Below are positions 1 through 5,449 of a stretch of DNA of 5,554 bases, in pieces (position 1 is the first letter of the stretch; each line of letters begins with the position of its first letter). The stretch is taken from IMG/VR virus record IMGVR_UViG_2706794685_000013. The stretch is one strand, 5' to 3'. Source of the DNA: a virus. Taxonomy: Duplodnaviria > Heunggongvirae > Uroviricota > Caudoviricetes. The position numbers and the translations under genes are program-made. The notes under the pieces were generated by a model, which searched no databases, was not told the DNA's origin, and saw only the letters and a list, made by a program, of their open reading frames with translations.

Positions 1-406
1 GGGACGGAAGTCGCTGTCGTTCTCAAAATCGGTGGAGCTGCATGACAAAGTCATCGGGCATTATCTGAACATAAAACACTATCAATAAGTTGGAGTCATT
101 ACCCGATATCCTGCTGAGAACATAAACACCCACGGATCGAGGCGTACGCTATCATGTTGCTGTGCACCGCCCAGTTTATAATTGGCGATGGTATCGATAT
201 CCATGTACCACACTGACATGTTTTAAAAAATGCAATAAGACATTGTATCTGAAAGAAAAAACAGGATTTTGAGGCGCTTTTTTATACCGTTTTCCGTGTT
301 TTTAACTGCCTGATTTTATTGAAATCTTTTTTAGTTTTGCAGAAAGGATTTTTTGCTCGATCGCTTTAATTTTATACATTCCTGATAACGGAAATTTTTT
401 TGCCCG

Positions 407-436
407 TTGACAGTTTTTGTTCTCCGGGGCTATATT
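407..436 (+). promoter_or_regulatory. Putative sigma70 promoter: -35 TTGACA (407-412), 18-nt spacer, -10 TATATT (431-436), preceded by an A/T tract (392-401) resembling an UP element
   Basis: Exact TTGACA hexamer and a 5/6 match to TATAAT at allowed spacing, read directly from the sequence. Oriented toward the Rha-like gene at 679. Confidence 0.4.
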
Positions 437-497
437 CCTCACACAACCGCAAAATCGGTTGTCGGGATTGGCGTCTCGGATAACATCACAACGCATA

Positions 498-518
498 GCC
501 GCGTTTGCGGTTTTTTTT
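498..518 (+). terminator. Putative intrinsic terminator or attenuator in the leader: short GC stem (gccgc/gcggt, loop gttt) followed by a run of 8 T
   Basis: Hairpin plus T8 tract about 55-75 nt downstream of the predicted start site. The stem is short (4 GC pairs plus one GU), so strength is uncertain. Confidence 0.3.
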
Positions 519-678
519 GCGTTAAGCATTGCCACATTCGCATTATGGTGGGGCGTGCAGGGGCGGAGAAATCCGCGCCGGGTTTTGTGATGACCGGTTA
601 CGCCAACCCTGTACGTCTCACCACCTCCCTGATTGGCGTCAGAGGTGGTGATCATCCAATTAATTGGAGTCATCACAT

Positions 679-3106: not shown

Positions 3107-4067
3107 CTCGGCACAAGCGGGGAGAAAATACCGTTACTCAGTACAGCGAATACCTGGACTAATCGACAAACATTCAGCGGTGGCCTTTCTGGTGAACTAT
3201 CCGGCAATGCTTCTACAGCTGCAAAATTAAAAACTGCCAGGAAAATAAGCAATGTGGCTTTTGATGGTTCCTCCGATATCACATTAAAAGCAAGTCATGT
3301 TGGTGCGTTTGCCTTAGGGAAAACAGGAAGCACCGTTGCGAATGATAAAGCAGTTGGATGGAACTGGAGTAGCGGAGCCTATAACGCAACNNNNNNNNNN
3401 NNNNNNNNNNNNNNNNNNNNNNNNNNNNNNNNNNNNNNNNNNNNNNNNNNNNNNNNNNNNNNNNNNNNNNNNNNNNNNNNNNNNNNNNNNNNNNNNNNNN
3501 NNNNNNNNNNNNNNNNNNNNNNNNNNNNNNNNNNNNNNNNNNNNNNNNNNNNNNNNNNNNNNNNNNNNNNNNNNNNNNNNNNNNNNNNNNNNNNNNNNNN
3601 NNNNNNNNNNNNNNNNNNNNNNNNNNNNNNNNNNNNNNNNNNNNNNNNNNNNNNNNNNNNNNNNNNNNNNNNNNNNNNNNNNNNNNNNNNNNNNNGGTAA
3701 TTCGATTGTATTGGGTGATAATGACACGGGCTTTAAACAAAAAGGCGATGGTAATCTGGATGTTTATGCTAATAACGTCCATGTTATGCGCTTTGTCTCC
3801 GGAAGCATTCAAAGTAATAAAACCATAAATATTACGGGACGTGTTAATCCCTCGGATTACGGTAACTTTGATTCCCGCTATGTGAGAGATGTCAGACTTG
3901 GCACACGAGTTGTTTAGACCATGAAGAAAGGCGTGATGTATGAAAAATCAGGCCATGTAATCACGGGGCTTGGTATTATCGGTGAAGTCGATGGTGATGA
4001 TCCGGCAGTATTCAGACCAATACAAAAGTTAATTAACGGAACATGGTATAACGTATCGCAGGTATAA
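3089..4067 (+). pseudogene. stf: Side tail fibre variable C-terminal cassette (Sv), promoterless and not joined to a constant region in this orientation; masked 3391-3695; in-frame TAG at 3915-3917
   Basis: Open frame from inside the crossover site: NLGLRELGTSGEKIPLLSTANTWTNRQTFSGGLSGELSGNASTAAKLKTARKISNVAFDGSSDITLKASHVGAFALGKTGSTVANDKAVGWNWSSGAYNA... After the gap: [122 protein letters not shown], which matches the lambda-type Stf C-terminus. The two flanks are in different frames if the N-run length is literal. Confidence 0.8.
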
Positions 4068-4069
4068 TC

Positions 4070-4603
4070 ATGCAGCATTTAAAAAACATTGTCGCAGGTA
4101 ATCCAAAAACCGTTGAACAATACCAGCTAACAAAGAATTTTGATGTTATCTGGTTATGGTCCGAAGATGGAAAAAATTGGCATGAGGAATTAAAAAACTT
4201 TCAGGAGGATACAATAAAACTGGCTTACACAGTTGAGGGAATAATTATTGCTATAGACAAGGATGTATCAGCAATTAATCCAGAAGGTTTAAGTGTCGTT
4301 GAGTTGCCTGATATTACAGCAAATCGCCGGGCTGATATTTCGGGCAACTGGATGTTCAAAGATGGTGCGGTGATAAAGCGAACTTATACCGAGGAAGAGC
4401 AAAGGCAACAAGCGGAAAATGAAAAGCAGAGCCTGCTGCAGCTCGTCAGGGATAAAACCCAGCTGTGGGACTCTCAGCTACAGCTGGGCATCATTTCCGA
4501 TGAGAATAAACAAAAATTAACCGAGTGGATGCTCTATGCGCAGAAGGTTGAATCCACAGACACCTCCAGCCTGCCAGTAACGTTTCCCGAACAACCAGAA
4601 TGA
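4070..4603 (+). CDS. tfa: Tail fibre assembly protein Tfa (lambda Tfa / Mu U family)
   Basis: 177-aa [25 protein letters not shown]...[32 protein letters not shown] is 2 nt after the tail-fibre stop (TAAtcATG), the usual stf-tfa coupling. Confidence 0.9.
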
Positions 4604-4606
4604 GAG

Positions 4607-4636
4607 AAGGCCCGCTATCGGGCCTTAATTTTTATT
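4607..4636. terminator. Bidirectional intrinsic terminator between the convergent tfa genes: stem aaggcccg / cgggcctt (8 bp, loop ctat) followed by aatttttatt
   Basis: Perfect 8-bp GC-rich hairpin with a T tract, placed between the stops of the two convergent tfa genes. Confidence 0.6.
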
Positions 4637-5159
4637 CAGGCTTTTGTGGCCATTCAGGATTTGCCGTATCCACACGGCTGACCAGAACACTGTAGCGTTC
4701 CCATGCTTCCAGTCGTGTGCGTTCCTCGTCTGTTGCCATATTCAGCCTGACAGCTCGTTCCAGCGGCTGGATGACTGATTCAGCTTCGGAAAGCAATGCG
4801 GCCTTTTGTGATTCGGCCTGTTGTTGCAGTTCCTGTTCTGTATATTCCCTCTTTACTACTTTACCATCCAGAAACATCCATTTTCCGTTATTGTCTGCGT
4901 GACGATTTGCCGTAATATCAGGAACTTCAACTATGCTTAGCCCTTCAGGATTAATAGTTGAAACGTCTTTACTGACAGCAACGATGATGTTGTTCTCATC
5001 GTAAGCAATTTTTATGGTGTCTGGCTGAAAATTCTTTTGTTCCTCATACCAGTTTTTGCCATCTTCGCAAAAGAGCCATACCACGCCCGCTTTTTTAGTT
5101 AGCTGGTATTGTTCCGGTGTTTTCGGATTCCCGGCCTTAATATTTTTCAGGTGCATCAT
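4632..5159 (-). CDS. tfa: Tail fibre assembly protein Tfa, alternative copy on the opposite strand (Mu U-prime type)
   Basis: 175-aa [33 protein letters not shown]...[35 protein letters not shown] at 5159-5157 is 1 nt after the upstream fibre stop, with GGGGAG upstream. The longer ORF in the track uses an upstream TTG and is not preferred. Confidence 0.9.
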
Positions 5160-5160
5160 C

Positions 5161-5449
5161 TTAAACACTCCCCACGTTGTACCATATTCCCCCAATCAAT
5201 TTCTGAATTGGCCTTCTGGCAACAGTGTCGACAATATCATCCGCATTGCTGTTAATTGCGGCTGTTAAAACATAACCTGACGCATCGCCAAAGCCGTAGT
5301 CGCGCCATACGTTTTTATATTCAATGCTGCCAAGACGAATATCCCGAACGACATGATTATGCAGCCATGTGCTTAACCAGTTGTTTTCCCACACTGAACC
5401 ATAAATATCGCCACTAGACGCAACTTGCGCACCACTTCCCAGCGCAAAT
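5161..5449 (-). pseudogene. stf: Alternative tail fibre variable cassette (Sv-prime), C-terminal fragment only, truncated at its 5' side by the IS insertion
   Basis: Translation ...[95 protein letters not shown] shares the C-terminal [12 protein letters not shown] signature with the other cassette. The upstream part of the ORF in the track (MSVKLRLPQ) is IS-derived sequence. Confidence 0.75.

Follow-up and report, generated by a model that had tools for sequence, protein, structure and literature searches.

The question raised by this locus is what lies between a near-consensus promoter and a downstream Rha-like gene, and what the intervening DNA would do. In the 5,554-nt stretch of prophage DNA analysed here (hereafter, the window), a preliminary description had pointed to this promoter, to a stem-loop at the predicted transcription start and to a short GC hairpin with eight T, and had proposed that the arrangement could yield a short transcript of about 70 nt, an attenuated leader for the Rha-like gene, or both. 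This proposal is supported by homology and by covariation, and, by analogy with the prophage Gifsy-1, in which the same RNA family does both, the locus may well do both too. Judging from the sequence and its homologues, positions 407-682 very probably constitute a single regulatory cassette of known type, in which an IsrK-type leader and a C4 RNA would gate the translation of a Rha-type antirepressor. Its putative parts are the following:

407-436, + strand: sigma-70 type promoter, with TTGACA at 407-412, an 18-nt spacer and TATATT at 431-436 (consensus match and conservation in homologues).
443-518, + strand: IsrK-family small RNA of about 75 nt, which would also be the 5′ leader of a read-through transcript (Rfam RF01394).
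443-462, + strand: hairpin 1, 7 bp with the loop CAAAAU, at the predicted transcription start (sequence, Rfam structure and RNAalifold).
463-478, + strand: hairpin 2, with the stem CGGGA/UCUCG, displaying site a1 (Rfam alignment).
468-474, + strand: site a1, UUGGCGU, within hairpin 2 (loop and 3′ side), complementary to segment a′ of C4 (600-606).
484-491, + strand: site b1, CAUCACAA, a single-stranded stretch ahead of the terminator, complementary to the loop of C4 hairpin 2.
497-518, + strand: intrinsic terminator, with the stem AGCCGC/GCGGUU, the loop GUUU and then T8 (sequence and homologues).
541-628, + strand: C4-type antisense RNA, with segment b′ in the hairpin-2 loop (585-593) and segment a′ in the junction (600-606) (Rfam RF01695).
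545-682, + strand: orf45-like upstream ORF of 45 codons, with its ATG within the 5′ arm of C4.
633-639, + strand: site a2, UUGGCGU, identical to a1 and placed five bases 3′ of C4, complementary to a′.
666-681, + strand: rha translation start region, with the Shine-Dalgarno (SD) sequence GGAG at 666-669, b2 at 670-677 and ATG at 679-681.
670-677, + strand: site b2, UCAUCACA, between the SD and the rha ATG, complementary to b′.
679-1239, + strand: gene for a Rha-family regulator, which is the cargo (891-1145 are masked as N in the window).

The promoter at 407-436, as previously proposed, was confirmed: it matches the consensus at 11 of 12 positions and ranks first among just five promoter-like sites in the window. 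Since shuffled sequences led us to expect 10.1 such sites, promoter-like sites were not enriched across the window, and the argument rests on the quality and the position of this particular site. By our own arithmetic, which assumes equal base frequencies, about 0.07 matches at 11 or more of the 12 positions would be expected per 5.5 kb, counting both strands. The promoter ends 6 nt ahead of the start of the isrK RNA as indicated by consensus and comparative evidence, and its position is conserved: of 70 unique upstream regions from homologues, 63% have a promoter with at least 9 of the 12 consensus positions at this place, vs 0.5% of shuffles.

It was observed that the sequence immediately downstream matches the Rfam family isrK (RF01394) at 443-517 over the full model (1-77), with 72.2 bits and E = 1.5e-14, the curated gathering score of this family being 50 bits. 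On the strength of this match, 443-518 is a member of IsrK, a known small RNA family, in a copy carried by an E. coli prophage. The model c4-a1b1 (RF03163, described as "a1, b1 targets of C4 antisense RNA") was also matched, at 430-482, with 43.8 bits and E = 7.6e-9, which lies 2.9 bits below its gathering score of 46.7; this score was passed by five of the 14 phage homologues. The stem-loop formerly placed at 444-461 is exact (caaccg/cggttg), and the additional pair A443-U462 lengthens its stem to 7 bp. When 73 unique IsrK homologues were submitted to RNAalifold, hairpin 1 was recovered, with pairs changed on both sides at five of the six stem positions, and the CGGG/CCCG stem of hairpin 2 was conserved.

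RNA folding, which had been suggested as a check, was run on two stretches. Folded alone, 440-520 did not return the family hairpins, but a weakly supported long-range structure in which the 5′ hairpin arm pairs with the terminator (-24.0 kcal/mol, z = -2.1). Folding 443-700 as a single molecule recovered the three IsrK hairpins together with the C4 fold (-97.6 kcal/mol, z = -4.89). The long-range fold was dropped as a working structure because Rfam, RNAalifold on the 73 homologues and the 258-nt fold all favour three separate hairpins.

The GC hairpin with eight T noticed at 498-518 is also present, its hairpin occupying 497-512 (six pairs, four of them G-C, and a 4-nt loop) and the T8 run 511-518. 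In the MAFFT alignment of IsrK homologues, the terminator classes were out of register and RNAalifold retained only three terminator pairs, so the terminator hairpins were catalogued directly. A G+C-rich hairpin of 5-7 bp followed by T6-8 was found in 98 of 111 homologous cassettes, nearly always ending 23-37 nt before C4. The preliminary description had held that homologues lacking the hairpin would speak against its proposal; what was found is a canonical terminator in these 98 cassettes, and the 13 exceptions are all P1/P7-like, their hairpin having a long loop and preceding TATTTTT or a sequence close to it. Pairing is preserved in 27 distinct terminator hairpins, such as ACCGC/GCGGU, ACACGC/GCGUGU, AGACGC/GCGUCU and ACACAC/GUGUGU.

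The start codon of rha (ATG, 679) lies 161 nt past the T-run, in agreement with the 160 nt previously given. This supposed gap holds a second RNA gene, C4, the core of the proposed switch: Rfam family RF01695 is matched at 541-628 with 75.9 bits and E = 4.2e-14, its gathering score being 45, and the isrK and C4 matches are 23 nt apart. Along with C4 (541-628), the preliminary description had overlooked hairpin 2 (463-478), the duplicated sites at the rha ribosome-binding site and the 45-codon upstream ORF.

Two segments of C4 are unpaired in the predicted fold, namely a′ (ACGCCAA, 600-606, in a junction) and b′ (UGUGAUG at 586-592, within the 12-nt loop of C4 hairpin 2), and the sites a1, b1, a2 and b2 are all complementary to them. 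The 7-mer TTGGCGT occurs at 468 and 633 only across the whole window, and GATTGGCGTC at 466 and 631 only within 401-700. Likewise, b1 (484-491) is complementary to the C4 hairpin-2 loop UUGUGAUG at 585-592 (b′), and CAUCACA is found in the window only at 484-490 (b1) and 671-677 (b2). For the four short site helices, energies between -10.3 and -14.0 kcal/mol were predicted, the b′:b2 duplex reaching -14.0 kcal/mol. Whole-molecule RNAduplex energies of C4 against IsrK or against the rha start region did not go beyond those of shuffles (z = -1.65 and -1.31, respectively). This procedure imposes long bulged duplexes and disregards intramolecular structure, and insignificant values are expected for short loop-loop contacts; site-by-site helices and covariation were used instead. 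In the predicted fold of 443-700, the SD and b2 also pair locally with GGUGGUGA (643-650) to form a hairpin.

The distribution of the element was assessed by a DNA similarity search, in which the stretch was present in 753 of 5426 complete E. coli genomes (about one in seven), and 417 E. coli records matched 230-890 with an identity of 99% or more; E. coli 14EC017, 14EC047 and TW14425 are examples of strains whose copy is identical. Related sequence was also found in phages (275 records), among them Stx phages, Gifsy-1, SfV, P88 and an Actinobacillus phage, and all 14 phage loci that were fetched carried isrK followed about 25 nt on by C4, every match being above threshold. Viral contigs were scanned with a pattern for the 5′ end of C4, and the matches, added to the fetched phage loci and the window, made up 114 unique cassettes, of which 111 are real C4 loci and three are chance pattern matches. 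The regular expression used for C4 parsed 103 cassettes and failed on 11 of the 114; eight real C4s with unusual closing stems are thus absent from the resulting table of 52 types. These types are the distinct (a′, b′) codes of the 103 parsed cassettes, built from 19 a′ and 43 b′ variants, and the b code of the window was not found in any other of them.

Covariation in homologues, another check that had been suggested, bore out the proposal, with 52 pairing codes across the 111 cassettes and compensatory changes in hairpin 1. Site a1 is a perfect 7-nt Watson-Crick complement of its cognate a′ in all 52 types, and a2 in 50 of them, the distances of a1 and a2 being constant, at about -78 and +12, respectively. 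The same pattern holds for b1 and b2, and in homologues b2 adjoins the start of the next gene. Because the b sites differ in length and offset, a formal intermolecular pair count was replaced by an alignment-free test of cognate vs non-cognate combinations. In this test, cognate Watson-Crick runs averaged 6.9-7.9 nt vs 4.3-4.6 nt for non-cognate ones (for b1, contiguous complementarity of 7.0 nt vs 4.5 nt), and the 95th percentile of non-cognates was exceeded by all a1 sites and by 96% of a2 sites. The case for pairing of the sites with C4 rests most strongly on this three-way covariation.

The rha gene itself is partly masked in the window; an identical unmasked copy in strain L001 encodes 185 aa and matches Pfam PF09669 (Phage_pRha) with 95.3 bits. 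Its start codon overlaps the TGA of the 45-codon upstream ORF (ATGA, 679-682). Among the 52 types, such an ATGA-coupled ORF was found only in the window and in Gifsy-1; in the others, the C4 ATG is open in frame into the downstream gene (28 types) or meets an earlier stop (22 types), and the coupled upstream-ORF step may be lineage-specific. In Lelliottia (71% identity), Enterobacter mori and Enterovibrio, the Rha homologues are likewise preceded by isrK and C4 at the same spacing. The scan of genome contigs for Rha homologues covered nine loci, too few to give the frequency of Rha genes that lack the cassette.

The behaviour expected of such a cassette can be drawn from Gifsy-1. Hershko-Shalev et al. 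(2016, PMC4825925) revealed that Gifsy-1 IsrK is a terminated small RNA of about 77 nt and that read-through of its terminator yields an isrK-orf45-anrP mRNA, which is transcribed and untranslated. IsrK provided in trans increased anrP translation 139-fold, full activation required the translation of orf45, and a processed downstream RNA complementary to IsrK, STnc1160, was described, the system being compared with P4 CI/seqA (PMC4825925). The substitutions G28A and G31A inactivated IsrK, their partners being C162 and C159 in a helix named b-I (PMC4825925). In the window, G28 and G31 correspond to G470 and G473. When the numbering of that paper was placed on the Gifsy-1 sequence, G28 and G31 fell in UUGGCGU (a1) and C159 and C162 in ACGCCAA (a′) of the Rfam C4, and the Gifsy-1 helix b-I thus corresponds to the a1:a′ pairing.

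By analogy with Gifsy-1 and P1, we infer for the window a partial terminator, excision of C4 and repression by it, and activation by the short RNA. Transcription from the promoter at 407-436 would begin at about position 443, and most transcripts would stop at 497-518, releasing an RNA of about 75 nt that shows a1 in a hairpin loop and b1 in single-stranded form. Transcripts reading through would contain C4 (541-628) and then a2 and b2, which bracket the SD and the ATG of the Rha-family, antirepressor-type gene. The a′ and b′ segments of C4 would pair with a2 and b2 and lock the leader in a closed fold, leaving rha untranslated; C4 could act after excision, as in P1, or within the mRNA, as in the Gifsy-1 model. 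The local hairpin that holds the SD and b2 with 643-650 may add to this silencing. The free short RNA would compete for a′ and b′ of C4, or of the C4 segment in the read-through mRNA, relieving the block; with the leader opened, the 45-codon upstream ORF would be translated and rha would follow through the ATGA overlap. A caution comes from Gifsy-1, in which constitutive co-expression of the C4-like STnc1160 strengthened IsrK toxicity instead of weakening it (PMC4825925), an effect that a pure titration or sponge model would not predict.

Two other readings depart from a two-RNA switch altogether. Genome pipelines assign 407-682 to a 91-aa "ash family protein", a PGAP call that agrees with a match to Pfam PF10554 (Phage_ASH) of 53.8 bits. 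However, this ORF opens with the TTG of the -35 hexamer and traverses the small RNA, the T8 terminator and C4. Its substitutions track RNA pairing, the authors of the Gifsy-1 study having also seen conserved nucleotides together with a variable orf45 amino-acid sequence, and the spacing between terminator and C4, which ranges from 12 to 37 nt in homologues, is not confined to multiples of three, so no frame spans both RNAs across them. A genuine protein is thus hardly credible, and the ORF is probably an RNA-coding stretch misread as a protein gene; the annotation upstream of the Rha regulator would be corrected to a two-RNA switch made of an IsrK-type leader and C4. The preliminary description had itself drawn parallels with lambdoid phages, citing oop RNA and the Q-antiterminated 6S late transcript; read in this way, the element would be an antisense RNA like oop or a late leader of the 6S kind that depends on Q. 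A strong promoter with a short terminated transcript in a lambdoid prophage bears them a generic resemblance only, and the window offers no credible opposite-strand gene as an antisense target, the downstream gene is an antirepressor-type regulator and not a late operon, the sequence falls in another RNA family (isrK), and the cassette is also carried by P2-like and P1-like elements that lack Q. This reading is accordingly given very little credence.

The remaining alternatives accept the parts and differ on what they do. The terminator might merely limit read-through to C4 and rha, with an inert product of about 75 nt and all regulation exerted by C4 on a2 and b2. The P1 record annotates a1 and b1 merely as "putative" targets, and the P1-type hairpin is weaker, with a long loop and an interrupted T-run, as if a discrete short RNA were dispensable. 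Nevertheless, the covariation of a1 and b1 with a′ and b′ is just as tight as that of a2 and b2, implying selection on their pairing, and in Gifsy-1 the short RNA is an activator in trans whose a1 point mutants are inactive (PMC4825925), which makes a pure attenuator unlikely. It may also be asked whether the cassette is a relic, intact in appearance and placed in a decayed prophage end where its regulatory output is gone. On the 3′ side of rha, the prophage consists of pseudogenes and fragments (DUF4376, tail-fibre-assembly pieces and a truncated invertase that is a 68-aa stub), and the cassette is separated by only about 185 nt from the prophage end, next to an ompW fragment beside yciE-yciG and trp. 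With such decay, the switch may no longer control anything useful. On the other side, promoter, terminator and all pairing elements are intact, as is the reading frame of rha, the near-identity of 230-890 among E. coli records (given above) points the same way, and L001 and some other strains retain complete tail-fibre genes in the neighbouring prophage. We hold a relic to be improbable, and the IsrK-C4 switch remains our preferred reading.

A broader possibility is put forward tentatively and with rather less than even expectation: the short RNAs of the IsrK type may serve specifically to mimic the targets of the repressor C4, each sharing a pairing code with its C4, and an RNA-coded network of cross-induction or anti-immunity may result, in which 52 or more codes are in use. 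Prophages that are unrelated carry the same a/b codes before different antirepressor cargo (Rha, ORF6N, Bro-N, derepression protein and icd-ant), so the short RNA of one prophage or of an incoming phage could derepress the antirepressor of another. The cargo was ORF6N for Gifsy-1 AnrP and for the Sakai gene, Bro-N for TL-2011b, a small derepression protein for P88 and icd-ant for P1. If these RNAs are target mimics, the efficiency of the terminator would set the ratio of decoy to repressor. The module, with its dozens of pairing codes and interchangeable antirepressor cargo, offers a simple sequence rule for predicting possible prophage cross-talk.

Among the known systems, the closest is Gifsy-1 isrK-orf45-anrP, with which the window shares the order of the locus, that is, a small RNA, a C4 containing an orf45-like ORF and an antirepressor-type gene, here of the Rha family. 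Both loci match the same RNA family above threshold with the same three hairpins, terminator included, and both carry a C4-like RNA (STnc1160 in Gifsy-1) about 25 nt after isrK, a 45-codon ORF running from the 5′ arm of C4 to a stop codon that shares bases with the next ATG (ATGA), and an identical a site (UUGGCGU/ACGCCAA). The b site, in contrast, is CAUCACA in the window and UCACCG in Gifsy-1, which makes a different pairing code, and the N-terminal domain of the cargo is Phage_pRha here vs ORF6N in AnrP, the two proteins sharing only the C-terminal ~65 aa at 32% identity. The window cassette lies at a prophage end by ompW, whereas the Gifsy-1 locus is downstream of Q. Hfq binding, activation in trans and the two transcript forms, short and read-through, were shown by experiment for Gifsy-1 IsrK (PMC4825925).

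The immI operon of P1/P7 presents the same order of parts (a1 b1 - c4 - a2 b2 - icd - ant1/2), and the P1 record annotates a1, b1, c4, a2 and b2, then icd and ant. The logic proposed for the window is the same too, with two unpaired segments of C4 pairing with duplicated targets, the downstream pair of which is located at the ribosome-binding site of the next ORF. In P1, where the synthesis of Ant is repressed by c4 RNA, C4 is excised from the leader by RNase P, and repression is coupled to Rho-dependent termination. Unlike P1/P7, the window has neither an icd or ant homologue nor a separate icd-like ORF; its downstream gene encodes a Phage_pRha protein, b2 is placed at the rha start itself, and an upstream ORF internal to C4 takes the place of icd. 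P1-type leaders carry a long-loop hairpin and TATTTTT, whereas the window has a canonical terminator. The element would thus work like immI, yet it is not a P1-type immI operon.

The c4-a1b1 motif, described by Weinberg et al. in 2010 (PMC2864571; RF03163), corresponds to the 5′ two-thirds of IsrK, that is, hairpin 1 and hairpin 2 with a1 in the loop, and its seed alignment includes P1 48217-48269. The window carries both sites complementary to the adjacent C4, and the motif as defined omits the part from b1 through the terminator.

In the lambda oop and pR′ 6S transcripts, a short transcript with an intrinsic terminator near a strong promoter is shared with the window; the RNA family is another one, and the window has no antisense target gene opposite, no Q/qut context and no late operon downstream. 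The earlier analogies with oop and with the Q-dependent 6S RNA thus chose the wrong families, the right ones being Gifsy-1 IsrK, the c4 of P1/P7 immI and P4 CI/seqA. The P4 CI RNA, together with seqA and seqC, is alike in that a processed leader RNA pairs with complementary sites up- and downstream of itself, and its reported action is the premature transcription termination of replication genes. The Gifsy-1 authors named SeqA as a structural homologue of IsrK (PMC4825925).

The element and its mechanism have therefore already been described, and no new kind of mechanism is proposed here. A 2025 review lists IsrK and c4 as separate systems, and the Gifsy-1 work links IsrK only to P4 CI (PMC4825925); what is mildly new is that the Gifsy-1 and P1 descriptions are explicitly brought together, along with the size of the code space. 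The mapping of the Gifsy-1 helix, the order of the P1 annotation and the content of the c4-a1b1 seed together show that IsrK and the P1 a1/b1 leader are the same element. By these comparisons, Gifsy-1 IsrK/STnc1160 and P1 a1b1/c4 are one module, of which the window holds a further copy.

The RNA cassette of the window is covered by a protein annotation, the first of the features below, whose reading frame takes the TTG of the promoter's -35 hexamer as its start codon and then runs across IsrK, the IsrK T8 terminator and the C4 RNA.

407-682, + strand: 'ash family protein', 91 aa (PGAP annotation; match to Pfam PF10554, 53.8 bits)

Translated RNA genes may be the basis of at least some of the Pfam ash family (PF10554). 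Annotations drawn across both RNAs were also found in other phages, in which coding sequences named 'Rha' or 'transcriptional regulator' cover isrK and C4 in mEp460 (locus L011, 832-1983) and SfV (locus L012, 832-1668). The 5′ arm of C4 carries an ATG that is in frame with, and open into, the downstream gene in 28 of the 52 cassette types, as distinguished by their pairing codes. This ATG may have misled gene callers, or it may be genuinely used for translation.

In phage P1, the position of the IsrK terminator is occupied by a hairpin lying between c4 and b1, one of the two leader sites complementary to C4, and left without annotation in the P1 record.

Phage P1 locus (L016), 48277-48342: conserved hairpin CCGCAGAU(U/A)UCCGAUAUUGCGG, between b1 and c4

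This hairpin was common to all 13 unique cassettes of the P1 type, that of P1 included, most of which present UAUUUUU 3′ of it, with a further interrupted U-run in two. Where the Rha homologue is more distant, other RNA motifs stand upstream of it in place of C4, and the second of those listed here scored below its threshold.

L141 (Proteobacteria MAG), 1069-1150: Rfam sRNA-Xcc1 match, 66.3 bits (threshold 53)
L144, 1087-1153: sub-threshold int-alpA match, 32.4 bits (threshold 35.8)

The same type of gene may be guarded by different RNAs.

Outside the cassette, the window contains the following features.

97-222, - strand: 3′ fragment of ompW (incomplete according to the annotation of L001, an identical locus)
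1601-1748 and 2651-2797: direct repeat of about 148 nt, 90% identity
2844-3050, - strand: Pin/Gin-type DNA invertase ORF
4070-4603 (+ strand) and 4632-5195 (- strand): two facing tail-fibre-assembly genes
4607-4626: strong terminator-like hairpin between these two genes

The prophage insertion site, marked by the ompW fragment, lies next to yciE-yciF-yciG and the trp operon. The window is masked by N in two places, within rha (891-1145) and within a tail-fibre gene (about 3390-3700); for rha, L001 supplied the sequence without masking. The direct-repeat copies, which flank a class I SAM-dependent methyltransferase gene (1977-2645), lie inside or adjoining fragments of tail-fibre-assembly genes, and both were matched by Rfam IS009 below its threshold of 117 bits (110.8 and 46.4 bits). 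Adjoining this repeat, the invertase ORF stops after 68 aa and is therefore a truncated gene. The 5′ parts of the facing tail-fibre-assembly genes form an inverted repeat of 159 nt (71%), and this arrangement, together with the hairpin, is that of a tail-fibre segment of the invertible kind.
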